Positions 45,040 through 64,000 of a stretch of DNA of 64,000 nt are shown one piece after another. The notes beneath the pieces were generated by a model. The model saw only the letters and a program-made list of their open reading frames with translations, searched no databases and was not told the origin of the DNA. The translations under genes were made by a program, and so were the position numbers. Each line of letters opens with the position of its first letter. Within the stretch, counting starts at the first letter, position 1. The stretch comes from Escherichia phage wV7: sequence record NC_019505.1; one strand, written 5' to 3'.

Positions 45040-48000
45040 ATGGCCGAGATTAAAAGAAAGTTCAGAGCAGAAGACGGTCTGGACGCAGGTGGTGATAAAA
45101 TAATCAACGTAGCTTTAGCTGATCGTACCGTAGGAACTGACGGTGTAAACGTTGATTACTTAATTCAAGAAAACACAGTTCAACAATATGATCCAACTCG
45201 TGGATATTTAAAAGATTTTGTAATCATTTATGATAACCGCTTTTGGGCTGCTATAAATGATATTCCAAAACCAGCAGGAGCTTTTAATAGCGTACGATGG
45301 AGAGCGTTACGCACTGATGCAAACTGGACAACTGTTTCGTCAGGACCCTATCAATTAAAATCAGGCGAATCGATTTCAGTTAACACCGCAGCGGGTAATG
45401 ACATTACATTTACTTTGCCATCTTCTCCAATTGATGGTGATACTATCGTTCTCCAAGATATTGGAGGAAAACCTGGAGTTAACCAGGTTTTAATTACAGC
45501 TCCGGTACAAAGCATTGTAAACTTTAGAGGTCAACAAGTACGCTCAGTACTAATGACTCATCCAAAATCACAGATAGTTTTAATTTTTAGTAATCGTCTG
45601 TGGCAAATGTATGTTGCTGATTATAGCAGAGAAGCGGCAGTTGTAACACCGGCAAGTCTTTATCAAGCGCAATCAAACGATTTTATCGTGCGTAGATTTA
45701 CTTCTGCTTCAGCAATTAATATTAAACTTCCTAGATTTGCTAATCATGGGGATATTATTAATTTTGTTGATTTAGATAAATTAAATCCGTTATATCATAC
45801 TATCGTTACTACATACGATGAAACTACTTCTGTACAAGAAGTTGGAACTCATTCCATTGAAGGTCGTACATCTATTGATGGTTTCTTGATGTTTGATGAT
45901 AATGAGAAATTGTGGAGATTGTTTGACGGGGATAGTAAAGCACGTTTACGCATTATAACGACTAATTCTAATATTCGTCCAAATGAAGAAGTCATGGTAT
46001 TTGGCGCGAATAATGGAACAACCCAAACAATTGAACTTCAGCTTCCAACTGATATTTCTATCGGTGATACTGTTAAGATTTCCATGAATTATATGAGAAA
46101 AGGACAAACAGTTAAAATCAAAGCTGCCGGTGAAGATAAAATTGCTTCTTCAGTTCAATTGCTGCAATTTCCAAAACGTTCAGAATACCCACCTGAAACT
46201 AAATGGGTGACTGTTCAAGAATTAGTTTTTAATGGCGAAACCAATTATGTTCCAGTTTTACAGCTTGCTTATATCGAAGATTCTGACGGAAAATATTGGG
46301 TTGTACAGCAAAACGTTCCAACTGTAGAAAGAGTAGACTCTTTAAATAATTCTACTAGAGCAAGATTAGGGGTAATTGCTTTAGCTACACAAGCTCAAGC
46401 TAATGCTGATTTAGAAAATTCTCCACAAAAAGAATTGGCAATTACTCCAGAAACGTTAGCTAATCGTACTGCTACAGAAACTCGTAGAGGTATTGCAAGA
46501 ATAGCAACTACTGCTCAAGTTAACCAGGATACTACATTCTCTTTTGCTGATGATATTATCATCACTCCTAAAAAGCTGAATGAAAGAACAGCTACTGAAA
46601 CTCGTAGGGGTGTCGCTGAAATTGCTACGCAACAGGAAACTAATACAGGTACTGATGATACGACAATCATCACTCCTAAAAAGCTTCAAGCTCGCCAAGG
46701 TTCTGAATCATTATCTGGTATTGTAACTTTTGTATCTACTGCAGGTGCTACTCCAGCTTCTAGCCGTGAATTAAATGGTACGAATGTTTATAATAAAAAC
46801 ACTAATAATTTAGTTGTTTCACCTAAAGCTTTGGATCAGTATAAAGCTACTCCAACACAGCAAGGTGCAGTAATTTTAGCAGTTGAAAGTGAAGTAATTG
46901 CTGGTCAAAGTCAAGAAGGATGGGCAAATGCTGTTGTAACTCCAGAAACGTTACACAAAAAGACATCAACTGATGGAAGAATTGGATTAATTGAAATTGC
47001 TACGCAAAGTGAAGTTAATACAGGAACTGATTATACTCGTGCAGTCACTCCTAAAACTTTAAATGACCGTAGAGCAACTGAAAGTTTAAGTGGTATAGCT
47101 GAAATTGCTACACAAGTTGAATTCGACGCGGGCGTCGACGATACTCGTATCTCTACACCATTAAAAATTAAAACCAGATTTAATAGTACTGATCGTACTT
47201 CTGTTGTTGCTCTATCTGGATTAGTTGAATCAGGAACTCTCTGGGACCATTATACCCTTAATATTCTTGAAGCAAACGAGACACAACGTGGTACACTTCG
47301 TGTAGCTACACAAGTCGAAGCTGCTGCAGGAACATTAGATAATGTTTTAATAACTCCTAAAAAGCTTTTAGGTACTAAATCTACTGAAGCGCAAGAAGGT
47401 GTTATTAAAGTTGCAACACAAACCGAAACTGTTGCTGGTACATCATCTAATACTGCTGTATCTCCAAAGAATTTAAAATGGATCGTGCAGAGTGAACCTA
47501 CTTGGGCAGCTACTACTACAGTAAGAGGCTTTGTTAAAACTTCATCTGGTTCAATTACATTCGTTGGTAATGATACAGCCGGTTCTACTCAGGACTTAGA
47601 GCTATACGAGAAAAATAGCTATGCAGTATCACCATACGAATTAAACCGTGTATTAGCAAATTATTTGCCATTAAAAGCAAAAGCTGCAGATAGTAATTTA
47701 TTGGATGGTCTAGATTCATCTCAGTTCATTCGTAGGGATATTGCACAGACGGTTAATGGTTCACTAACCTTAACCCAACAAACGAATCTGAGTGCCCCTC
47801 TTGTATCATCTAGTACTGCTACGTTTGGTGGATCAGTTTCGGCAAATAGTACATTAACTATTTCTAATACTGGAACGGCAACTCGTCTGATTTTTGAGAA
47901 AGGACCTCAAACTGGAACAAACCCAGCCCAAACGATGACTGTTAGAGTGTGGGGAAATCAATTTAGTGGGGAATTAGATACAACACGTTCTACCGTATTT

Positions 48001-54105: not shown

Positions 54106-54110
54106 AATGA

Positions 54111-54124
54111 GGGGCTTCGGCCCC
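54111..54124 (+). other. GGGGC-TTCG-GCCCC hairpin between genes 37 and 38
   Basis: Perfect stem and UUCG loop, followed by ribosome-binding site GGAG and the gene 38 ATG. Confidence 0.6.
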
Positions 54125-54136
54125 TTGGAGGTTTAT

Positions 54137-54931
54137 ATGGCAGTTGAAGGACCGTGGGTAGGATGGTCTGCGAGGGTACAAACTGGAGACCCTTGGATGG
54201 GTGGTGCCGCGCTGAGATTGAGAATGGGAATTCCGTTTTGGATGAGTAATATGATAGGTCGATCTGTTGAAGTAATTCACACCCTTGGAGCGGACCATAA
54301 CTTCAATGGTCAATGGTTCCGAGATAGATGTTTTGAGGCAGGTAGTGCACCTATAGTGTTTAATATTACCGGAAATTTGGTATCATATTCTAGAGACGTT
54401 CCTTTATTCTTCATGTACGGAGATACACCTAATGAATATGTTCAGTTGAATATTGGTGGCGGCGTCCATATGTGGGGTAGAGGTGGACAAGGTGGATGGA
54501 CTCATTCCGGCGGAGATGGTAATGGTCAACAAGGTGGTCATTGTATTCAAAATGACATCGGTGGACGATTAAGAATTAATAACGGTGGAGTAATTTGTGG
54601 TGGAGGTGGAGGTGGAGGTGGTATCGCTTATCGTCCTCACTCTGGTGCAAAATGGCAAGATATTGGTGGTGGTGGAGGAAGACCATTTGGCCCAGGAGGA
54701 GGCGGAGGTTATTCCGGCGGCGCAGCTTCTTATGATGGCCCAGGAGGTGGTTATAATTATGGTAATGCTCACTCTGGCCAGGGTGGTGATGCTGGCGCAA
54801 ATGGACAAAATGCCTGGCATGATGGCGGTAAAGTTCTAAAAGTTGGAGCTGGTGGCGCTGCCGGATATGCTGTTATAGGATCAGCTCCAACATGGCAAAA
54901 TGTTGGAGTAATATATGGTCCAAGGGTATAA
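54137..54931 (+). CDS. 38: gp38 receptor-recognising adhesin (T2-type, glycine-rich motifs)
   Basis: [10 protein letters not shown]... start after a ribosome-binding site (track ORF starts at 54107); conserved N-terminal block [32 protein letters not shown]; poly-Gly islands separating variable segments. Confidence 0.88.
54597..54625 (+). repeat. GGT/GGA trinucleotide tract encoding poly-glycine in gp38
   Basis: ggtggaggtggaggtggaggtggt read directly; further GGN runs at about 54660-54740. Confidence 0.8.
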
Positions 54932-54962: not shown

Positions 54963-55625
54963 ATGGCAGCACCTAGAATATCATTTTCGCCCTCTGATAT
55001 TCTATTTGGTGTTCTAGATCGCTTGTTCAAAGATAACGCTACCGGGAAAGTTCTTGCTTCCCGGGTAGCTGTCGTAATTCTTTTATTTATGATGGCGATT
55101 GTTTGGTATAGGGGAGATAGTTTCTTTGAGTACTATAAGCAATCAAAGTATGAAACATACAGTGAAATTATTGAAAAGGAAAGAAACGCACGCTTTGAAT
55201 CTGTCGCCCTGGAACAACTCCAGATAGTTCACATATCATCTGAGGCAGACTTTAGTGCGGTGTATTCTTTCCGCCCTAAAAACTTAAACTATTTTGTTGA
55301 TATTATAGCATATGAAGGAAAATTACCTTCAACAATAAGTGAAAAATCACTTGGAGGATATCCTGTTGATAAAACTATGGATGAATATACAGTTCATTTA
55401 AATGGACGTCATTATTATTCCAACTCAAAATTTGCTTTTTTACCAACTAAAAAGCCTACTCCCGAAATAAACTACATGTACAGTTGTCCATATTTTAATT
55501 TGGATAACATCTATGCTGGAACAATAACCATGTACTGGTATAGAAATGATCATATAAGTAATGACCGCCTTGAATCAATATGTTCTCAATTCGTCGATGA
55601 GGGTTTTCTTATCTTCTTGGGTTAA
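54963..55625 (+). CDS. t: Holin t
   Basis: 220 aa; MAAPRISFSPSDILFGVLDRLFKDNATGKVLASRVAVVILLFMMAIVWY, single transmembrane segment, large C-terminal domain. Confidence 0.9.
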   Translation: MAAPRISFSPSDILFGVLDRLFKDNATGKVLASRVAVVILLFMMAIVWYRGDSFFEYYKQSKYETYSEIIEKERNARFESVALEQLQIVHISSEADFSAVYSFRPKNLNYFVDIIAYEGKLPSTISEKSLGGYPVDKTMDEYTVHLNGRHYYSNSKFAFLPTKKPTPEINYMYSCPYFNLDNIYAGTITMYWYRNDHISNDRLESICSQFVDEGFLIFLG

Positions 55626-55805
55626 TTCAGAAACAATTTTACGGAATGAATTCTGATTTAATTTTCTACCTTCATGCGTTACTCCAATCTCATTCAGAAA
55701 TGCAATAAAATTAGCACGATTCTCAACAATATCTTCTCTGGAAAATTTAATCAAAATAGACGCAACAGTAATAATTTCACGAACTGTATCAATATTTTTA
55801 TTCAT
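55575..55805 (-). CDS. asiA: AsiA anti-sigma-70 factor (76 aa, C-terminus differs from recalled T4 AsiA)
   Basis: MNKNIDTVREIITVASILIKFSREDIVENRANFIAFLNEIGVTHEGRKLNQNSFRKIVSELTQEDKKTLIDE, then LRTY*. Confidence 0.85.
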   Translation of the reverse strand: MNKNIDTVREIITVASILIKFSREDIVENRANFIAFLNEIGVTHEGRKLNQNSFRKIVSELTQEDKKTLIDELRTY

Positions 55806-55817
55806 TAACTATACCAC

Positions 55818-55970
55818 TCAATTAGTTGACTTTGTTATAATATCATCAGACGCTTGATTTGTAAACTGGTCTGTGTTATTTTCTTCAAAAATTTTTTCTA
55901 CGAATTCCTTGAACGACTCACGTTCCTGAGCTACATTATGCTCGATTACCATTTCAAGATTATGACTCAT
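55818..55970 (-). CDS. Small acidic protein (~50 aa), not in the ORF track
   Basis: Hand translation MSHNLEMVIEHNVAQERESFKEFVEKIFEENNTDQF...; ATG overlaps the arn stop (ATGA). Confidence 0.35.
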   Translation of the reverse strand: MSHNLEMVIEHNVAQERESFKEFVEKIFEENNTDQFTNQASDDIITKSTN

Positions 55971-56245
55971 TCGAAATAATCTTCAATTTCGTAATCATGG
56001 ACGTAAATCATTATAGTTTTTAATACATCATCAATACTTTTTCCTGGAGCTGGAATTACATAAAAATATCCTGCTTTTGAGAGGTCTTTATAAGTTCCAA
56101 CCAAGAAATCGTTATTCTCAAGATGTAGTTCTTCAACTAATTCATTGACAATTGAGTGGTATAAATTTGGTAGAAACTTATATAGCTTTTCTAGAATATC
56201 AATTTTGATTGTATATTGAACCACGGATTGAGAATCAATAATCAT
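55967..56245 (-). CDS. arn: Arn, anti-restriction (McrBC inhibitor) protein
   Basis: 92 aa acidic protein, position next to asiA. Confidence 0.75.
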   Translation of the reverse strand: MIIDSQSVVQYTIKIDILEKLYKFLPNLYHSIVNELVEELHLENNDFLVGTYKDLSKAGYFYVIPAPGKSIDDVLKTIMIYVHDYEIEDYFE

Positions 56246-56328
56246 AGACCTTCCCCTTATGTTTCTGTTTGCGATTAGATTCTTTAAACGCTTTCTTCTT
56301 ATCCTTATGAACAGAAGCTTTATTAAAA

Positions 56329-56547
56329 TTATGTTTTGCGACTAAATTGTTCATAGTGCTGAATTACCTCTCTTAAACATTTGCATGTGAATGAAAACTT
56401 TTTAGCTACACCACATTCAAATATATGTTCTCTTAAATCACGTGTATCGGTATATCCCATCTCAACAATAAAATGCCGTATTAAATTTTTATCTTTATCA
56501 TTGAGAGAATTAAAATAGTCAGATTTTGAATTAATTTCCCTGGCCAA
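56329..56547 (-). CDS. Hypothetical protein (arn.x position)
   Basis: 72 aa ORF. Confidence 0.45.
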   Translation of the reverse strand: MAREINSKSDYFNSLNDKDKNLIRHFIVEMGYTDTRDLREHIFECGVAKKFSFTCKCLREVIQHYEQFSRKT

Positions 56548-56827
56548 ATTGAATCACCTTCAGTTGACGTTTTAATTCTTTTATCATTTCTTCGTTCATC
56601 GCAATATAAAGATCGCGTAAAGCAGGTTTTAGCATTCCATTTATTGGAGAACTAAATGGACATACATAATCTTTTCCTACGAGCTTTTTGGTGAATTCCA
56701 TATCACAGAACTTAAATCCCGGCTCATTGGTATAAATTCCCCAATTAGTTGACATCATTTTATTAGCATATTCCAGTGCCTGGATTTGATTCATAATTCC
56801 ATCAATTTGAAACTTTTTAATATTCAT
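56531..56827 (-). CDS. Hypothetical protein (arn.x position)
   Basis: 98 aa ORF. Confidence 0.5.
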   Translation of the reverse strand: MNIKKFQIDGIMNQIQALEYANKMMSTNWGIYTNEPGFKFCDMEFTKKLVGKDYVCPFSSPINGMLKPALRDLYIAMNEEMIKELKRQLKVIQFGQGN

Positions 56828-57288
56828 TAGTAAAGGTCCTCAGAGTAAAGTTCTTTTTCACTACCACCACGTTCAATACGTACTTGTCCAGCGTAAGTTG
56901 CAATAATCATTGCTTCTTCACGTGTCCAATAATTACTATATTGGTCAATAAACCCTTGGTCATCATCACAAACTTGCTGAGTAACTAATTGAGGTTTAAC
57001 TACATCTAAAACTTCTGCCATATCTTTAGAATAATGACGAGCACCTGGAATAACAAGAGTTCGTCCATCTTTTAATTTAAAACGATTAGCTGCACAGACA
57101 ATTCGTCGTTGATACTTTTGGTTTTCATCCCAGTACGCAGTCTGCCAACAGATTTCAGGAACTTCTTTCAGAATATCTTCTTCTGTGCATTTATAACCAT
57201 GCGCTTTAAATTTTTGAACAAGACTCTCCGGAGTCTCACGAGATAAAGGCACATTCAGCATTTTTAAACGATTAATAAATGGGTTCAT
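56827..57288 (-). CDS. Hypothetical protein (arn.x position)
   Basis: 153 aa ORF. Confidence 0.55.
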
Positions 57289-57614
57289 TTAAACCATCCT
57301 TTAATACGTTGCCACAAAGTTTTCTGCTGAGCTTTGTTAACACCAATTGAACGAATAACCGGTTGAGATTCCTGGAATTCTTTATAATCGGCAAGGTAAA
57401 TTTCGTAAGCTGCATCCGTAAATGAACTTATCGCTGCCATAAAATTATTGCGAATACCTACTGGAGCATCTTTACTTTCACGAATAATCATGTATTTACC
57501 AGTCTTAATCTTTACAATAGTTCCAAGATAAGCTCCATGGTACCAAATATCCCAACCCTCTTGAGTAGGTTCTGCGCAACGACGAAGTTCATTGACAATT
57601 TCTAACTTGTTCAT
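57285..57614 (-). CDS. Hypothetical protein immediately downstream of motA
   Basis: 109 aa ORF; start overlaps the upstream gene. Confidence 0.55.
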
Positions 57615-57624
57615 TATTTATTCC

Positions 57625-58260
57625 TCACAGTTCAGATGCTACAGTGATTACAGCTTCAATGTTTTCTACCGAGCGTTTAATGTCAAGATACACATTGCCG
57701 TTTTTAGCGATTTTACAAGACATTCCGATGTCAGTAAATTTCTGAATATGATGTTCCATCATTTTATATCCAAAAATTCGCATATTTCCATTGTTGTTAA
57801 TTTCAAAATTACGAATTCCGTGAGTGCGTTTTTCTAAAATAGCAAGATAGTTACTGCGATAAGTTTCAACCTTTTTAAGAACAAATCCATTTTCATCCAA
57901 AAGTTTTAACATGAGGTCTTTATCTTCTTCCATATCAGAAGTAATCTCGCGAGCTTTACGAGTTGCTCGTTTTTTCAGCAGTTCCGGAGCATTTTCCTGT
58001 GCGTATAAAGTTGCTGCGTTTGAAATAATATCCTGAGCTTCACCTGTAATGATTAATCCATCACCAGATTTCTCCACCAGGCCTTTTTTAATCAATACCC
58101 CAATATTACTATTAACTACTGCGTTACCTAAATCTGGATGCACCTCACGAACTTCTGCAGCTGTAATGAAATCTTTCTTAGCAATGGTAATTAAAATCGC
58201 AGCAGTTTTTTCATTCAGAACATCGTTAGAAGCTTTGATGATGTAAGTTACTTTAGACAT
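57625..58260 (-). CDS. motA: MotA, middle-promoter transcription activator
   Basis: 211 aa, MSKVTYIIKASNDVLNEKTAAILITIAKKDFITAAEVREVHPDLGNAVVNSNIGVLIKKGLVEKSGDGL... Confidence 0.92.
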   Translation of the reverse strand: MSKVTYIIKASNDVLNEKTAAILITIAKKDFITAAEVREVHPDLGNAVVNSNIGVLIKKGLVEKSGDGLIITGEAQDIISNAATLYAQENAPELLKKRATRKAREITSDMEEDKDLMLKLLDENGFVLKKVETYRSNYLAILEKRTHGIRNFEINNNGNMRIFGYKMMEHHIQKFTDIGMSCKIAKNGNVYLDIKRSVENIEAVITVASEL

Positions 58261-58301
58261 TTTCTAATCTCCGTAATTCTGTATCAGTAGTTGATAGTTG
58301 T

Positions 58302-58331
58302 ATAGTACCATAGAATGCTTTGGTTGTAAAC
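58302..58331 (-). promoter_or_regulatory. Early promoter for motA (GTTTACA, 17 nt, TACTAT)
   Basis: Minus strand: ttttttatttcaaaaattttttcacaaaacggTTTACAaccaaagcattctatggTACTATAcaactatcaactac. Confidence 0.65.
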
Positions 58332-58362
58332 CGTTTTGTGAAAAAATTTTTGAAATAAAAAA

Positions 58363-58382
58363 GGGAGAGCCTCGGCTCTCCC
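58363..58382 (-). terminator. Hairpin GGGAGAGC-CTCG-GCTCTCCC upstream of the motA promoter
   Basis: 8-bp perfect stem, then a U-run on the minus strand. Confidence 0.6.
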
Positions 58383-58387
58383 TAAAA

Positions 58388-58537
58388 TTACTGCATGACT
58401 GTGATAACTGTCATGATAACACGTTGAATTCCGAACGCAAGAAGACCTCCTGCTACGGCTGGAACAACACCTAAACCCGCCAGTAAAATGCTACCAGATA
58501 CTAATGCAGCGCTTGTAATACCTATGAATGGACTCAT
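58388..58537 (-). CDS. Small hydrophobic peptide (49 aa), not in the ORF track
   Basis: MSPFIGITSAALVSGSILLAGLGVVPAVAGGLLAFGIQRVIMTVITVMQ; ATG overlaps the gene 52 stop. Confidence 0.45.
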   Translation of the reverse strand: MSPFIGITSAALVSGSILLAGLGVVPAVAGGLLAFGIQRVIMTVITVMQ

Positions 58538-59862
58538 TTGATTTCCTCTAAATCTTTGGTGTATTCTGTAACTACATCAGTAGTTTTCCAATATTCGTTT
58601 TCTTCTTTTTTGGCTTTAGCTTCTTCAGCAAGTTTCTTCGCTTCATCGGAAGTCATATGAAAAATATTCATTCCGACTAGTTTATCAACATAAGAAGAAT
58701 ACATCTCAATTTTAGAAAGTTCTTCGGTCAGTTCTTTGCGAGTTTTACCCTGTACAACAATTTCACCTGAAATTACTTTCTTAATGAAATGCGCCTTGGC
58801 AAAGGCTAAACGAAATGCTGACTCAGTTTCTTTGATTTTGTTATCAATTCGTTTTTGGACATAAGTTTTACGAACTTCAACAAAGTCTTTAATTAAATCG
58901 ACTACGTTATCGTAAACTTGTAGTTTTCCTTTCTCATTAATAACCGTAATATTCTGAGAACGACGCTCAATCAACCCGAAGTCTTTCATAATTTTTGCAT
59001 GACGTTCTTCTTCATTATCGCTCAAAGAATATTCTTTGCGGAATTTAACTTTGAATCCAAAACCATGCTCACCACAAGCATCATCCCATGTAATGAAGCC
59101 TTTATCTTCAAGTGGGTCTAAGATTTTACTCACATAAGTTTCACGATCATACTTATACGGAATCTCAGTGATATGCATTTGAGTTCGTGAAGTAAACTTA
59201 TATGTTCCACGAATTTCATATTGCCCATCAATTTCAACGACTTCACCACGAAATTCTGGGAATTCTACCTTCGGTTTAGTTACTTTCTTTCCTTGAAGAG
59301 CTTGTAGTACAGCTTTCTTGACAGAAGAAACGCTATGAGGAAGAATGTAAGTTGCATAACCAGTTGCAATACCGGAAACGCCATTAAGAAGAACAGTAGG
59401 AATAATAGGCAAATAGAAAGCAGGCGGAATGTGTTCTTTATCTTGATGTACCGGAGCATATTCAGTATCTTTATATACGTTATAGAAATTTTTACTTACA
59501 CGAGCAAAAATATAACGACTTGCTGCTGCCTTTTGGACAGTACGAGAACCAAAGTTTCCTTGACCATCTAACAGAGGAAAGTTATTATTCCAAGTGTTAG
59601 CCATCAAAGCACCTGCGTCTTGTGCAGAGTTTTCGCCATGATGATATCCAAGGTCCGCTACACCGCCTGCGATAGAAGCGAGTTTGTGAAACTTATCTTT
59701 ATTTCCTCGTGCCAAATCAAGAGCTCGAGCAATAACAAATCGTTGAACTGGCTTAAATCCATCAATCATATTTGGAATAGCACGATTTTCAACCGTGTAC
59801 ATAGCATAAGCCAATGCTTCATTATCAATGATACTTTTTAAATCGCGATTATTCAGTTGCAT
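58534..59862 (-). CDS. 52: DNA topoisomerase II medium subunit gp52
   Basis: 442 aa; gyrase A-like N-terminal region with catalytic-tyrosine context (AASRYIF). Confidence 0.9.
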   Translation of the reverse strand: MQLNNRDLKSIIDNEALAYAMYTVENRAIPNMIDGFKPVQRFVIARALDLARGNKDKFHKLASIAGGVADLGYHHGENSAQDAGALMANTWNNNFPLLDGQGNFGSRTVQKAAASRYIFARVSKNFYNVYKDTEYAPVHQDKEHIPPAFYLPIIPTVLLNGVSGIATGYATYILPHSVSSVKKAVLQALQGKKVTKPKVEFPEFRGEVVEIDGQYEIRGTYKFTSRTQMHITEIPYKYDRETYVSKILDPLEDKGFITWDDACGEHGFGFKVKFRKEYSLSDNEEERHAKIMKDFGLIERRSQNITVINEKGKLQVYDNVVDLIKDFVEVRKTYVQKRIDNKIKETESAFRLAFAKAHFIKKVISGEIVVQGKTRKELTEELSKIEMYSSYVDKLVGMNIFHMTSDEAKKLAEEAKAKKEENEYWKTTDVVTEYTKDLEEIK

Positions 59863-59866
59863 AAAT

Positions 59867-60007
59867 TTACCATACTAGTGAATGTAGTGCCATAATAACA
59901 TCAGAAATGAAAAGCACGACTTGAATTAATCCGAACATTACTCCATAATATAGTGCTACTAATAAAGCAGCAAGGGCTAATGAATAGCCCAAGATTTTCT
60001 TAATCAT
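59867..60007 (-). CDS. Small hydrophobic peptide (46 aa), Ac-like position
   Basis: MIKKILGYSLALAALLVALYYGVMFGLIQVVLFISDVIMALHSLVW, hand translation. Confidence 0.4.
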   Translation of the reverse strand: MIKKILGYSLALAALLVALYYGVMFGLIQVVLFISDVIMALHSLVW

Positions 60008-60152
60008 TTTTATTTAATAGCCAAAACAATAATAAAATTGCTAATACGCCTTGAGCTGTTGCTTGTAAAAATACTGAAGTTTCTCCAGTTATTACTGTTC
60101 CGGCGAATAAAAAGGACCAGCAGAAAAAGGCTATACCATAAACAAATTTCAT
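60000..60152 (-). CDS. Small hydrophobic peptide (50 aa)
   Basis: MKFVYGIAFFCWSFLFAGTVITGETSVFLQATAQGVLAILLLFWLLNKND, hand translation; overlaps the next ORF. Confidence 0.4.
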   Translation of the reverse strand: MKFVYGIAFFCWSFLFAGTVITGETSVFLQATAQGVLAILLLFWLLNKND

Positions 60153-60162
60153 ATTTTCCTCA

Positions 60163-60240
60163 TTAGCGTCCGAAGACGCCTTTAGTTTTAAAATTATTAC
60201 GATAGAACTGCATCACATGTTCGTTATGGAAATTACTCAT
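60163..60240 (-). CDS. stp: Stp peptide (25 aa), activator of host PrrC anticodon nuclease
   Basis: [25 protein letters not shown] closely matches the recalled T4 Stp; TAATG overlap with the ndd stop. Confidence 0.7.
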
Positions 60241-60683
60241 TAATATGCCTGCAAAACGAATTTAAAGTTATCAGCCAACATACGGTTCATTTCTTCAAGT
60301 GTTTGATACTCAGAATGATGATTACGAGTAAACGCTAAAGCTAACTGACCTTTACCAAATCCCGTCGTCAGAGGTTTCATCTTAGAAGCAGGCAGATAAA
60401 ATACTGTGTATGCCATATTGTTATTTGCAATAGTACGCGCAAGCTGAGACCGGCGTTGACGAATATGACTTAGAACTGCGCTGAATCCTTGCTTAGAACG
60501 CTGATTACCAACATAAAATCGTGCAGACACACATGAACCATCGAATTCACTTACTAAAAAGTAAAATCCAGGTTTAGACAAAATGTCTTTATGCGGAGTT
60601 CCCAAAAACCACTCACCGCCCTTGATTGTACCAATAACAGTAGCGCCTGCATTATTTAGATCAGTAACAGTCATATATTTCAT
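60240..60683 (-). CDS. ndd: Ndd nucleoid disruption protein (147 aa from MKYMTVTD)
   Basis: [33 protein letters not shown]...; the track ORF extends upstream through a hairpin. Confidence 0.85.
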
Positions 60684-60716
60684 ATTAATTTCCTCTAAAT
60701 TATTTTCTACTCCAAG

Positions 60717-60736
60717 GCCGCATGAATACGCGGCCA
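60717..60736 (-). other. Hairpin GGCCGC-(8 nt)-GCGGCC upstream of ndd
   Basis: Inverted repeat read directly between ORF 60742..60957 and the ndd ribosome-binding site. Confidence 0.5.
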
Positions 60737-60741
60737 TTAAA

Positions 60742-60957
60742 TTAATCGTCGCAGTCGACGCTCAATTCCCAAAACTCTTCTACGGTATAAGTTTCAGTAT
60801 CATTTTCAATACAGAAACGTTCATTACTGTTATTTGCTAAAGTAGCGTTAACTGTCGGTTTCTCGCTAGTGCTCTTAAGAGGTGAAATACGAATTAACTG
60901 ATCACCGTTATCTAAACAGAAAATTTCACCAACTTTTACATCTTTAAAACTTTTCAT
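60742..60957 (-). CDS. Hypothetical protein (ndd.x position)
   Basis: 71 aa ORF. Confidence 0.5.
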
Positions 60958-61072
60958 AATTCACCTCAAGGAGTATAAAATCCAAATGCAGTTGTTGACC
61001 ATCCCATCCAATATGGAAAATTTGCACCAATGTAAAACATAAGAATATAAAACCAACCGCTCAACAAATTCA

Positions 61073-61291
61073 TCATTTTACACCATTCCAAATTGTTTCA
61101 ACTACGGATTTTAAACCATTTTGATGAATATCCATTCCGACTACTGCCATCAAATAGATTCCAACTACAACTGAACCTAAGGCAAAAATCAGCATGAAAA
61201 TGAATAAAGCCGGAAAAATATTATCGAAAAACCATTCAATAAATGTAAAAGCACTGCGTTTACGCTTCATATTTTCCTCACATAAATCCAA
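61073..61291 (-). CDS. Small membrane protein (ndd.x position)
   Basis: 72 aa with a central hydrophobic helix. Confidence 0.5.
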   Translation of the reverse strand: MDLCEENMKRKRSAFTFIEWFFDNIFPALFIFMLIFALGSVVVGIYLMAVVGMDIHQNGLKSVVETIWNGVK

Positions 61292-61391
61292 AGTAAACGT
61301 TTAATACATCAATCATTAAAACGATTGGGAATATACTCAAAACTATTAGTATTATAACTACATTCCATATAGCTTTAACAATCTTTTTCAT
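61278..61391 (-). CDS. Small membrane peptide (~37 aa from MKKIVKAIW)
   Basis: Track ORF reads through the promoter; real start follows ribosome-binding site ggaggaacagaaaATG. Confidence 0.45.
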   Translation of the reverse strand: MKKIVKAIWNVVIILIVLSIFPIVLMIDVLNVYFGFM

Positions 61392-61419
61392 TTTCTGTTC
61401 CTCCGTAGTTGATAGGGTA

Positions 61420-61449
61420 ATAGTACCACGGAAGAACAGTCTTGTAAAC
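61420..61449 (-). promoter_or_regulatory. Early promoter (GTTTACA, 17 nt, TACTAT)
   Basis: Minus strand: gTTTACAagactgttcttccgtggTACTATTaccctatcaactacggaggaacagaaaATG. Confidence 0.55.
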
Positions 61450-61633
61450 AACTTTTTAAAAATATTCGTAATAAATGTGAATACCAATCACCACTGCTGA
61501 AACCTGTGCAACCCACCACGCACAAGCAATAAGTACAGAATTCAAAATTTTCATAATAACCTCATCACAAAAGTAAATGTTAAACAAATTAATGGAATAC
61601 TAATTAACCAAACGAAACACCACCATAATGAAC

Positions 61634-61897
61634 TCATAGCTCAATCTCAGCGATTTTCATTTCATTACTATTAATAGCCGCTTTAAGACTATCTGAAAGA
61701 ATTACATTCCAGTGGTCATTCATATGACCATTAACTAAGCGTGTAATTTCTTCGGGAGTTGAAAAATAAGGCGTATCAGACTCCCAATGCGATAATCCTA
61801 AGCGAGTATAAATCATACCTTCATCATCGCTAGAATATTCAACTGACACAAACTCATCAGTTATTTTATGTTTAGCGTAATAAAATTTAAATTTCAT
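61634..61897 (-). CDS. Hypothetical protein (~87 aa from MKFKFYYAKH)
   Basis: Track ORF reads through the promoter; real start follows ggaggagcggaaaATG. Confidence 0.5.
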   Translation of the reverse strand: MKFKFYYAKHKITDEFVSVEYSSDDEGMIYTRLGLSHWESDTPYFSTPEEITRLVNGHMNDHWNVILSDSLKAAINSNEMKIAEIEL

Positions 61898-61925
61898 TTT
61901 CCGCTCCTCCGTAGTTGATAGTTGT

Positions 61926-61955
61926 ATATTACCACGGTCCTTGTGGTATGTAAAC
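61926..61955 (-). promoter_or_regulatory. Early promoter (GTTTACA, 17 nt, TAATAT)
   Basis: Minus strand: aaaattttcacaaaacggTTTACAtaccacaaggaccgtggTAATATAcaactatcaactacggagga. Confidence 0.55.
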
Positions 61956-61971
61956 CGTTTTGTGAAAATTT

Positions 61972-62529
61972 TTAAATGGAAAGATACCATCCGCTGTAGT
62001 TGCTTTTTCTTACAACTTTACGAAGGTCTTCTCTGTCACCGATGAACTTCGGAGTGTACTGGATGACACCTGGATGAATTTCTTTAGTGTTGAATATAAT
62101 TATACAGTCAGCGACTTGATGATTTAGAATGGGCCCTAGATTTATTCCAGAACCATATGGATACTCTCCGCTGCATCCCGTTGTTACCGAAATCCAACGC
62201 GAGTCAGTTTGATGTGTCTTAACTTCTACACGAAGCCCGCAGTATCTTGGATGCGCCAATACATCCCATGCGTATGTATACGGGTCATTAACGTCCTCTT
62301 GGCCTTTGTTAACATACCCGCTTAGCCAATCTGCTACAAAAAACTCTGCGTACACCGCGATACGGCATCTTTCGATAACTTCTGCTTTATCCTGGTTCGG
62401 GTTTTGTTTTAAAGAGTATCTTGCTGTATCAGCAATTTTGACCTTCATTTCACTAGTCAAATCACTGTTCGATAGGGTAAATGTCGGAATCTGAAATAGT
62501 CTCTGTAAACCCGGATTCGTTTTCTGCAT
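61972..62529 (-). CDS. denB: Endonuclease IV
   Basis: 185 aa in the denB position between rIIB and ndd. Confidence 0.8.
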   Translation of the reverse strand: MQKTNPGLQRLFQIPTFTLSNSDLTSEMKVKIADTARYSLKQNPNQDKAEVIERCRIAVYAEFFVADWLSGYVNKGQEDVNDPYTYAWDVLAHPRYCGLRVEVKTHQTDSRWISVTTGCSGEYPYGSGINLGPILNHQVADCIIIFNTKEIHPGVIQYTPKFIGDREDLRKVVRKSNYSGWYLSI

Positions 62530-62791
62530 TTAGACTTTCCTTTTTACCGCTGAGATAAGCGTTATATACTTTAAGAGTGCCGTAATAAATTCGGTCATTT
62601 TCATCTAAAGACTCACGGTCAAGTTCATCGAGTTCCTTTTTATCCATGACTATAACATCATTGCAATAAAGAAACCCAAGTTTTTTGTGTCCAAACTCAA
62701 ATTTATTACAGTACACAATATTAGCGTGATGATTACCATGTAGAGAAATTTCTTTTATGTCGGAATCACCGATATTCATACAATAAATCAT
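62462..62791 (-). CDS. Hypothetical protein (denB.1 position)
   Basis: 109 aa ORF; 3' end overlaps the denB 5' end. Confidence 0.5.
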   Translation of the reverse strand: MIYCMNIGDSDIKEISLHGNHHANIVYCNKFEFGHKKLGFLYCNDVIVMDKKELDELDRESLDENDRIYYGTLKVYNAYLSGKKESLNAENESGFTETISDSDIYPIEQ

Positions 62792-62810
62792 AATTCACCT
62801 TAAAACAAAA

Positions 62811-62822
62811 GGGCCGAAGCCC
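62811..62822 (-). other. GGGC-TTCG-GCCC hairpin (minus-strand reading) upstream of ORF 62462..62791
   Basis: Same 22-nt element as at 63039-63050. Confidence 0.55.
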
Positions 62823-62827
62823 TTATT

Positions 62828-63022
62828 TTATTTGAATTGTGCAATTCTTTTCTCTAAACAATCTGCATAAGATTTCATTGAGATGAACTGTGAAAGCAGC
62901 AGTTCTTGCTCAACTGCACTAACCGTTAGAAACTTTGCGCTTTCTAAAAATTTGCTCAGTGCATTAATTTTGAGCATTAATTGATCGTATTCTTCTTTTA
63001 CTCGTGCTTGATAACCTAACAT
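62828..63022 (-). CDS. Hypothetical small protein bracketed by identical hairpins
   Basis: 64 aa ORF with ribosome-binding site. Confidence 0.5.
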   Translation of the reverse strand: MLGYQARVKEEYDQLMLKINALSKFLESAKFLTVSAVEQELLLSQFISMKSYADCLEKRIAQFK

Positions 63023-63038
63023 AATTTTCCTTAGTTAA

Positions 63039-63050
63039 GGGCCGAAGCCC
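63039..63050 (-). other. GGGC-TTCG-GCCC hairpin immediately 3' of rIIB
   Basis: Abuts the rIIB stop codon. Confidence 0.55.
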
Positions 63051-63989
63051 TTATTTAAATTGTTCAGTAACGTCTTCAATTACTTCGTATTGGCAGGTAC
63101 GCATTTTAGCGTCGTTGTAATCAATCGGAATTGATACTACATCACGAGGATGAACTTTAACTTTTACAACTCGGCTGGTTGAACCACCGAAGTGACGAAT
63201 ATAAGATTTAGAACACACATGCAGACCACGAGAACAAGTTTGTGTATCATCGTCATTCACACGAGTACGCGGCATTTTAACTACTTTACCAGGACTGTTA
63301 TCAAAGGTATTTGAGTGACAGTCAAAGTAATTATTGCGAACTACTTTCCAAGCATAGAAGTAACCATCTTCTGTAATTTCAATATCGTTTGCTACCAAGA
63401 AATCAAAAAGTCGAGATACCGCTTTCTGGCTTGGGTTTTCCAGCAGATTTTCCAAGAACGGAAAATAAAATTCAAAGTTTTCGCCTTTTTCCATCGAATC
63501 AAGAATACGATCAACCAAACCAGACCGCAATTCAATATTTTGATAGAATAAGCTTCCACCTTCAATTCGAACATCGCCGGAAATATATTTTTCAACAGCG
63601 CGACGAACATTAATTTTTTGTGCCGCTTCTTCCAGCTTATCCGCTACAAGCAGATTGAGAATTTCCTGGAAGTTTGAATGAGTATTAGGTGTTGCATTAT
63701 AAGTTACACCATCGACAGTAATCGAAATGAATTTTTTAGATGCATTCCAAATAATGTCAGATTTAGTAACTGGAGCAATAACTGCATCGCTATTAACTTT
63801 AACTGTAATATCACCGCTAATAGTAACTTTAGAGCGTTTAGCTTCTTCAGCATTTTTCAAAACACGACGGATTGTATCAACCGATACACCTTGCCAATCA
63901 GCCAATTCCTGCTGAGTATAATTACCGCTTGAATACAGTTTAACAATTTCAGCTTGTTCGTTTTTGGTCAGGCATTTAATATTGTACAT
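63051..63989 (-). CDS. rIIB: rIIB protein
   Basis: 312 aa, MYNIKCLTKNEQAEIVKLYSSGNYTQQELADWQGVSVDTIRR...; size as recalled for T4 rIIB. Confidence 0.9.
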   Translation of the reverse strand: MYNIKCLTKNEQAEIVKLYSSGNYTQQELADWQGVSVDTIRRVLKNAEEAKRSKVTISGDITVKVNSDAVIAPVTKSDIIWNASKKFISITVDGVTYNATPNTHSNFQEILNLLVADKLEEAAQKINVRRAVEKYISGDVRIEGGSLFYQNIELRSGLVDRILDSMEKGENFEFYFPFLENLLENPSQKAVSRLFDFLVANDIEITEDGYFYAWKVVRNNYFDCHSNTFDNSPGKVVKMPRTRVNDDDTQTCSRGLHVCSKSYIRHFGGSTSRVVKVKVHPRDVVSIPIDYNDAKMRTCQYEVIEDVTEQFK

Positions 63990-64000
63990 AATTTTCCTTA

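Follow-up and report, generated by a model that had tools for sequence, protein, structure and literature searches.

The phage gene t encodes a late-acting holin and asiA encodes an early anti-sigma-70 co-activator, and in Escherichia phage wV7 the two convergent genes overlap at their 3' ends while AsiA appears to be shortened. The question raised by this locus is whether the arrangement is an evolved overlap of two coding sequences, a mutation carried by one phage stock, or an error in the sequence record. We analyzed a 64,000-nt stretch (hereafter the window) of the wV7 record NC_019505/HM997020, which belongs to a Tequatrovirus. wV7 is the E. coli O157 typing phage V7, whose sequence was determined by Kropinski et al. 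2012 (cited in PMC4429339); the accession HM997020 is given in PMC5201272, and V7 has been described as a broad-host-range, strongly lytic phage (PMC7943454). An earlier note on this DNA had proposed that AsiA is shortened with a divergent C-terminus and that the two genes overlap by about 50 nt (~17 codons), and it had offered a frameshift or sequencing error, a real truncation, or a real dual-coding overlap as candidate causes.

The description of AsiA stands. The asiA ORF encodes 76 aa, of which residues 1-72 are identical to T4 AsiA and the remainder is LRTY. This identity is based on a phmmer search against the PDB, in which 1jr5 (90 aa) was matched with divergence from residue 73. At the nucleotide level, codons 1-72 run from 55805 down to 55590, codons 73-76 (55589-55578) are the antisense of t codons 206-209, and a TGA stop codon follows at 55577-55575. 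The length of about 90 aa given for T4 AsiA in the earlier note is confirmed by both the T4 reference record and PDB 1jr5, which give 90 aa, and the alternative that T4 AsiA would also be 76 aa with the same ending thus fails. An exact-sequence look-up identified the 76-aa protein as the annotated wV7 protein AEM00912.1 / YP_007004992.1. It scores 131.2 bits against the Pfam AsiA family (PF09010, cut-off 25) and covers profile positions 1-73 of 85. The residues listed in PMC2988021 as contacts for sigma-70 region 4 (E10, V14, I17, L18, K20, F21, F36, and I40) are all kept, with residues 1-72 being identical to PDB 1jr5/1tlh. wV7 AsiA is a truncated member of the AsiA anti-sigma-70 family and not a non-member; what differs is the C-terminus, where residues 73-90 are replaced by LRTY and the C-terminal helix A6 (about residues 74-90) is missing.

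The holin is changed too, which the earlier note had missed. Codons 1-209 of t (54963-55589) are native, residues 1-209 being identical to the KP869105 holin, and codons 210-220 (55590-55622) encode FVDEGFLIFLG, the antisense of asiA codons 62-72, with the stop codon at 55623-55625. Beyond Q209, its last native residue, the protein accordingly ends in 11 foreign residues instead of AARILGRAK, the native end of the 218-aa T. The 220-aa product is an exact match to the annotated wV7 holin AEM00911.1. Residues 5-209 match Pfam Phage_holin_T (PF11031) with 374.8 bits, and the PDB 6pxe holin aligns to ~209/210, with residues 56-209 matching except for N75 in place of T and S208 in place of A. By the family profile, the cytoplasmic N-terminus, the transmembrane domain, and the periplasmic domain are intact. 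Among the members listed for the holin cluster, the other full-length proteins are all 218 aa, the one exception being a partial 75-aa fragment.

Table 1. Features of the t/asiA locus in the wV7 window, with positions numbered from the first nucleotide of the window
Feature	Position	Strand	Details and basis
t, holin gene, deletion allele, 220 aa	54963..55625	+	ORF list, Pfam, PDB 6pxe, KP869105 alignment
asiA, anti-sigma gene, deletion allele, 76 aa (...TQEDKKTLIDELRTY, then stop)	55575..55805	-	ORF list, PDB match, Pfam
Overlap of the convergent t and asiA ORFs	55575..55625	.	51 nt; six-frame ORF list
Deletion junction, TGTTCTC/AATTCGTC	55587..55588	.	Alignment and BLAST of window against KP869105
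Remnant of terminator-like hairpin	55589..55617	+	Loop 55589-55593, 3' arm TCGATGAGGGTTTT 55594-55607, T-rich tail 55608-55617
Retained 5' arm and loop (CCGCCT TGAATCAATATGTTCTC) of weak second parental hairpin	55565..55587	+	ssDNA fold, predicted

To compare this locus with its wild-type form, window positions 55480-55720 were aligned with the corresponding loci of KP869105 and RB5. The KP869105 sequence of O157 typing phage 7 was assembled later, from Illumina data on another stock (PMC4429339). The alignment revealed a single clean 87-bp gap with flanks that are 100% identical to KP869105. The missing segment corresponds to KP869105 10193-10279 or 10194-10280, the junction having a 1-nt 'A' ambiguity that makes a placement between 55588 and 55589 equally possible, and to T4 160846-160932 (T4 positions derived from the reference record). 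The wV7 allele reads TGTTCTCAATTCGTC across the junction. Lost with the segment are the last 9 codons and the stop codon of t as well as codons 73-90 (the last 18) and the stop codon of asiA, and the missing DNA is present nowhere else in the whole 64-kb window.

The wild-type junction, as found in T4 (NC_000866 160221-161150) and KP869105 (9568-10497), has the same genes in the same order and convergent orientation. In KP869105 the DNA is 100% identical on either side of the wV7 junction, and T residues 1-209 and AsiA residues 1-72 are the same. The T4 and KP869105 forms, however, have abutting stop codons, an AsiA of 90 aa, a T of 218 aa, and a 14-bp hairpin with a T-run, whereas wV7 lacks the 87 bp. 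RB5 shares the arrangement of T4 and KP869105, in which t and asiA converge with 0 nt of spacer or overlap. The overlap in wV7, which had been put at about 50 nt and ~17 codons and amounts to 51 nt and 17 codons in the ORF list (55575-55625), arises because each gene reads over the deletion junction into the antisense of its partner until the first stop codon; it is the sum of two read-throughs, 11 codons for t and 4 codons for asiA. The t/asiA overlap is therefore a by-product of the deletion, a trivial consequence rather than a new gene arrangement.

The locus was also compared with sequence collections. Matches to the locus were obtained in 487-571 phage records, and every match listed spans the locus in two pieces with an additional 87 bp. 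A 40-mer over the junction had no match in 50,697 phage records, and a 37-mer over the junction had no match in IMG/VR, metagenome contigs, or genome contigs. With the junction lacking a match in the phage, IMG/VR, metagenome, and genome collections, a recurrent or evolved arrangement was dropped. At the protein level, the AsiA 90% cluster has 132 members, and among the 15 listed the other full-length proteins are all 90 aa, with one exception, a partial 70-aa fragment. A contig search for a 76-aa AsiA found none, the exact cluster match being wV7 itself, and a search for naturally short AsiA homologs returned only fragments or chimeras (P0009, 50 aa, and the fusion P0010) plus a read-through protein (P0003). 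Across 9 homologs, down to 58% identity, the C-terminal motif EFNEGF..YR..M shows almost no variation. Because the relatives examined all carry the additional 87 bp, the junction is unique among the sequences searched, and this motif is nearly invariant, the sequence comparison identifies the long AsiA as the ancestral form and as one under purifying selection. The short form, by the same comparison, either arose recently in a single lineage or is a mistake in a single record.

Two of the homologs deserve a brief description in their own right. P0010 (71 aa, from an ENA contig of 880 nt) joins AsiA residues 1-28 to the C-terminal portion of a small ORF upstream of arn (EMGYTDTRDLREH...; compare the window ORF 56329-56547 on the minus strand), and a rearranged or chimeric metagenomic contig is its probable source. 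In P0003, an AsiA homolog of 132 aa with 75% identity (ENA contig, 10,075 nt), the stop codon has been lost and the frame continues for 42 more codons antisense to the 3' end of t, a stretch that includes ...YLARPNILAAW.... Whether real or a sequencing error, P0003 could represent a second, independent route to overlap at the convergent t/asiA junction.

With the gap and its distribution in hand, the candidate causes can be weighed. A frameshift or base-call error of 1-2 nt within 55560-55660 would account for the shortened asiA ORF taken alone, yet the alignment contains one 87-nt gap and no small indel, FNEGFEGVYRYLEMYTNK is encoded in no frame past the junction, and the missing DNA is absent from the entire window. 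As the gap is clean, no 1-2-nt correction restores the long frame, and we regard the probability of this explanation as negligible. An overlap that evolved and was selected as dual coding, with the short AsiA and the re-tailed holin being natural to the phage group, is very improbable as well. It would agree with the observations that both ORFs stay open and end shortly past the junction and that the distant homolog P0003 (132 aa) also runs into antisense t, which indicates that overlaps can occur here. However, the arrangement is present in one record only, and all of the listed relatives, including a sister sequence that is >99.99% identical, have abutting and non-overlapping genes. In addition, each of the new tails matches the antisense strand of the partner gene exactly and ends where the first stop codon occurs, and the A6 motif that would have been given up is nearly invariant throughout the AsiA family. 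Convergent genes with an evolved overlap are expected to keep that overlap among relatives and to maintain both frames; such a pattern was not found at this locus. Of the causes suggested in the earlier note, a real truncation comes closest, although it is incomplete in that t and one arm of a hairpin were hit by the same gap.

This leaves the question of whether the gap exists in the phage or only in its record. It may be that the 87-bp gap is a sequencing, assembly, or editing artefact and that the phage has a normal 90-aa AsiA and a 218-aa T. In favor of this are the presence of the 87 bp in KP869105, which is an independent Illumina assembly of typing phage 7 and is otherwise identical nearby, and the absence of the junction from every other sequence searched. 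The lost AsiA segment is also strongly conserved, and the breakpoints lie at predicted loop/stem boundaries of hairpins, where polymerase jumping during library amplification could be favored. Against it, the window is otherwise of high quality, with no frameshifts relative to KP869105 and just 3 nonsynonymous SNPs in tail-fiber genes, and it runs unbroken through the KP869105 contig break. Assembler or homopolymer errors do not typically remove 87 bp from a site that lacks flanking repeats and has just 1 nt of microhomology, and both truncated products are of kinds that work experimentally, so nothing forces the artefact reading. Taken together, we consider an artefact unlikely, though by no means far-fetched, and favor as the probable explanation a real 87-bp deletion that arose recently as a derived mutation within a single laboratory or stock lineage and does not represent an evolved architecture.

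The comparison with KP869105 over the 64 kb provides the context for this judgement. The two sequences differ by 1 mismatch in 45,453 nt, 2 in 9,898 nt, and 0 in 8,413 nt; the other differences are a region of KP869105 with a contig break in gene 34 and the 87-bp deletion. The three SNPs, at window positions 45311, 53474, and 54652, are all nonsynonymous and fall in the long-tail-fiber genes 34, 37, and 38, where the window (KP869105) residues are R (H) in gp34, V (A) in gp37, and K (N) in gp38. Random sequencing error explains them less well than the separate propagation of two lineages does, and they look like host-range adaptation of separately propagated stocks of one typing phage. In gene 34, KP869105 is broken at the position of window 45453-45833, both ends of its record falling inside the gene, while the window is contiguous there. 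About 316 nt of KP869105 (L005 46600-46915) are absent from the window and the first 285 nt of KP869105 duplicate window 45549-45833, and KP869105 thus seems to carry a contig-joining artefact in this gene. It should be noted that gp38, a T2-type glycine-rich adhesin, appears in the mechanical ORF list at 54107-54931 with an upstream ATG (274 aa), whereas the annotated wV7 and KP869105 start is at 54137 (264 aa); by exact-sequence look-up, gp38 is the annotated wV7 protein AEM00910.1.

The sequence around the breakpoints was examined for features that could explain the deletion. A search for repeats or microhomology found 1 nt at the junction only. A TTGAAT direct repeat is present but is out of register with the junction, and it was rejected as the cause. 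In the predicted ssDNA fold of the parent (L001:1715-1850), the left breakpoint falls where the loop meets the 3' arm (AGGCGG) of a weaker hairpin, CCGCCT...AGGCGG, and this arm is the first part deleted. The right end of the deletion is at the boundary between the 5' arm and the loop of the hairpin downstream of t described below. With both breakpoints at hairpin boundaries in the predicted folds, the deletion may have had a structure-associated origin, although this is speculative. Separately, the right breakpoint coincides with the cleavage position of a parental EcoRI site (GTTG^AATTC; window 55587-55593, parent L001 1824-1831), and the left breakpoint is inside a DdeI site (C^TCAG). DdeI/EcoRI fill-in ligation was considered as a source of the junction and rejected, as it would leave one A more than is observed; for this reason the match to restriction sites is probably a coincidence.

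The deletion also affects a hairpin 3' of t. In the parent, AAAACCCTCGTTGA-ATTCG-TCGATGAGGGTTTT is followed by CTTATCTTCT, forming a stem of 14 pairs with a loop of 5 (terminator scan, L001 1813-1845). This hairpin is on the t-sense strand, 43 nt 3' of the t stop codon and within asiA codons 68-78, and together with the T-run it occupies L001 1813-1855, which corresponds to KP869105 10267-10309 and about T4 160920-160962. The 5' arm was deleted in wV7. Consistent with this, RNA folding of the window, in comparison with the parent, gave z = +0.66 and no predicted hairpin, and the combination expected of an intrinsic terminator (a G+C-containing stem-loop followed by a U-run on the t-sense strand) is present in the parent and absent from the window. 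The match to this consensus and the annotation as 'terminator' in one GenBank record, MT682709, suggest that the parental hairpin is a putative terminator of t transcripts. Loss of the hairpin would probably allow late t transcripts to read further antisense into the early region.

Conservation of the hairpin in distant relatives was checked as a test of its function. The hairpin within asiA is present in Tequatrovirus, where t and asiA have no spacer, and it was found in Tequatrovirus only, which provides no covariation support. At AsiA loci of 60-73% identity, the asiA hairpin is absent and several loci (e.g., L023, L015) carry hairpins in an intergenic spacer, one of them with a clear T-run. 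The coding sequence of the early gene asiA in Tequatrovirus thus contains a terminator-like element that would serve the convergent late gene t.

What the loss of the C-terminus would mean for AsiA can be judged from published work on the T4 protein. AsiA binds sigma-70 region 4 via residues 10-42, and deletion of the whole asiA gene is lethal (PMC2988021). AsiA lacking its C-terminal 17 residues is as toxic in vivo as the wild type (PMC2988021), and the Δ74-90 and Δ79-90 variants co-activate PuvsX normally in vitro, according to the account of Pal et al. 2003 reviewed in PMC2988021. In the appropriation complex as solved by cryo-EM, helix A6 moves into the RNA exit channel, with R82 paired with β D1310, M86 contacting β Y1305, and N74 bonded to the flap-tip residue E898; with ΔA6 AsiA, the complex is reduced but not abolished (PMC6755090). 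N74, R82, and M86 are conserved, and replacing any one of them weakens the flap interaction or MotA-dependent activation in some assays (PMC2988021, PMC6755090); on these grounds, a phage without all of A6 might be handicapped.

By analogy with these proteins, AsiA(1-72)LRTY should still bind sigma-70 and co-activate MotA-dependent promoters. The N-terminal half that binds sigma-70 region 4 is retained, and the protein would thus be expected to remodel sigma-70 and to serve the MotA-dependent middle promoters. The sigma-appropriation complex would probably be formed less efficiently, because helix A6, with its contacts of R82 and M86 to the C-terminal region of β, and the flap-tip contact of N74 are lost. 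No compensatory change in motA accompanies the deletion, window 55588-64000 being identical to KP869105. The laboratory variants Δ74-90 and ΔA6 (PMC2988021; Shi et al. 2019, PMC6755090) are almost the same protein, ending at ∼residue 73 without A6, and they keep sigma-70 binding, toxicity, and co-activation along with a reduced but notable appropriation complex. The wV7 protein differs from them in having four extra residues, LRTY, with F73 changed to L. Furthermore, the laboratory truncations were plasmid-expressed or purified, whereas the wV7 allele is part of a phage genome and comes together with an altered holin.

A parallel in living phages is provided by AsiA mutants of the T4-like Serratia phages PhiCHI14 and PhiCBH8, which are viable, are truncated near the equivalent position, and escape ToxIN abortive infection (PMC5449768). 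The E71stop mutation corresponds to approximately T4 residue 72, based on the equivalence of V13 to T4 V14 in that paper, and a T4-like Serratia phage that carries it reaches >1e9 pfu/ml (PMC5449768). In other PhiCHI14 and PhiCBH8 escape mutants, the AsiA C-terminus is extended by a frameshift (PMC5449768). The Serratia mutants were selected on a ToxIN-expressing host and have point mutations or small indels within asiA, in contrast to the 87-bp deletion of wV7, which also hits t.

Upstream of the asiA coding region, a promoter-like sigma-70 site was observed at window 55837-55865 on the minus strand (L001 2075-2103), overlapping the 3' end of asiA.1. It is a match to the consensus only, made up of TTTACA, a 17-nt spacer, and TATTAT with an upstream TG (10/12 matches), and the number of promoter-like sites in the asiA region is not above the shuffled expectation.

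The altered holin can be evaluated in a similar manner. The truncations Δ19C, Δ70C, and Δ125C of T still lyse with only a slight delay (PMC12162936), and the functional interface between T and RI (R104, Y110, and F111) is away from the C-terminus (PMC11413866). As C-terminal truncations lyse and the RI interface lies elsewhere, hole formation and RI binding should survive in wV7 T. The 209 native residues retain the cytoplasmic helix, the transmembrane domain, the bridge helix, and the RI-binding surface, and the protein with its 11 additional residues would be expected to form holes. The new C-terminus is hydrophobic, and it may alter periplasmic stability or lysis timing; altered stability is conceivable because DegP prefers hydrophobic C-termini (PMC12162936), and by analogy a lysis-timing phenotype of the wV7 t allele is possible. 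Some t alleles (rV) abolish lysis inhibition (PMC6832632). The known C-terminal truncations of T and the rV alleles resemble wV7 T in having a C-terminal change in the periplasmic domain, but in wV7 just the last 9 residues are swapped, for 11 that are mostly hydrophobic.

On the favored explanation of a real deletion, a single 87-bp event would have taken the stop-to-stop meeting point of t and asiA. A phage with both truncated proteins is expected to be viable by analogy, because AsiA without residues 74-90 and C-terminally truncated T still function in published work. Moreover, since the loss of asiA is lethal and V7 is nevertheless strongly lytic, the asiA allele must work if the deletion is real. 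It could further be supposed that the deletion was not only real but selected, one event having removed A6 and re-tailed the holin, either as an escape from a host defense or as an rV-like allele. We consider this doubtful. In the first case, a system of the O157 hosts used for propagation could, by analogy, sense AsiA or its takeover of transcription; the idea is suggested by the AsiA truncations at nearly the same residue that free Serratia phages from ToxIN. In the second, the change in the holin could alter lysis timing or lysis inhibition and have been picked up during plaque propagation.

Much of the background to this locus is known already. Both genes are textbook genes, equivalent AsiA truncations are known as laboratory constructs and as selected mutants of other T4-like phages, and the two wV7 proteins are in public databases. 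In the literature searched, we found no description of the 87-bp deletion in the wV7 reference that clips t, asiA, and a putative terminator.

The significance of the allele depends on which explanation is correct. Should the gap prove to be an artefact, two protein sequences are in error in NC_019505/HM997020 and UniProt G0X5A0. A real deletion would mean that the conserved helix A6 of AsiA, the final 9 residues of holin T, and the hairpin 3' of t are all missing from an effective biocontrol phage that grows well. The role of A6 in sigma appropriation is disputed, with substitution data speaking for it and truncation data against it, and wV7 and KP869105 would provide a nearly isogenic pair for in vivo tests. 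Were the deletion also selected, wV7 and TP7 (typing phage 7) would be a near-isogenic natural pair that settles the importance of A6 in vivo. The wV7 allele is chiefly useful as a natural test of A6 in vivo, or as a correction to the reference record.
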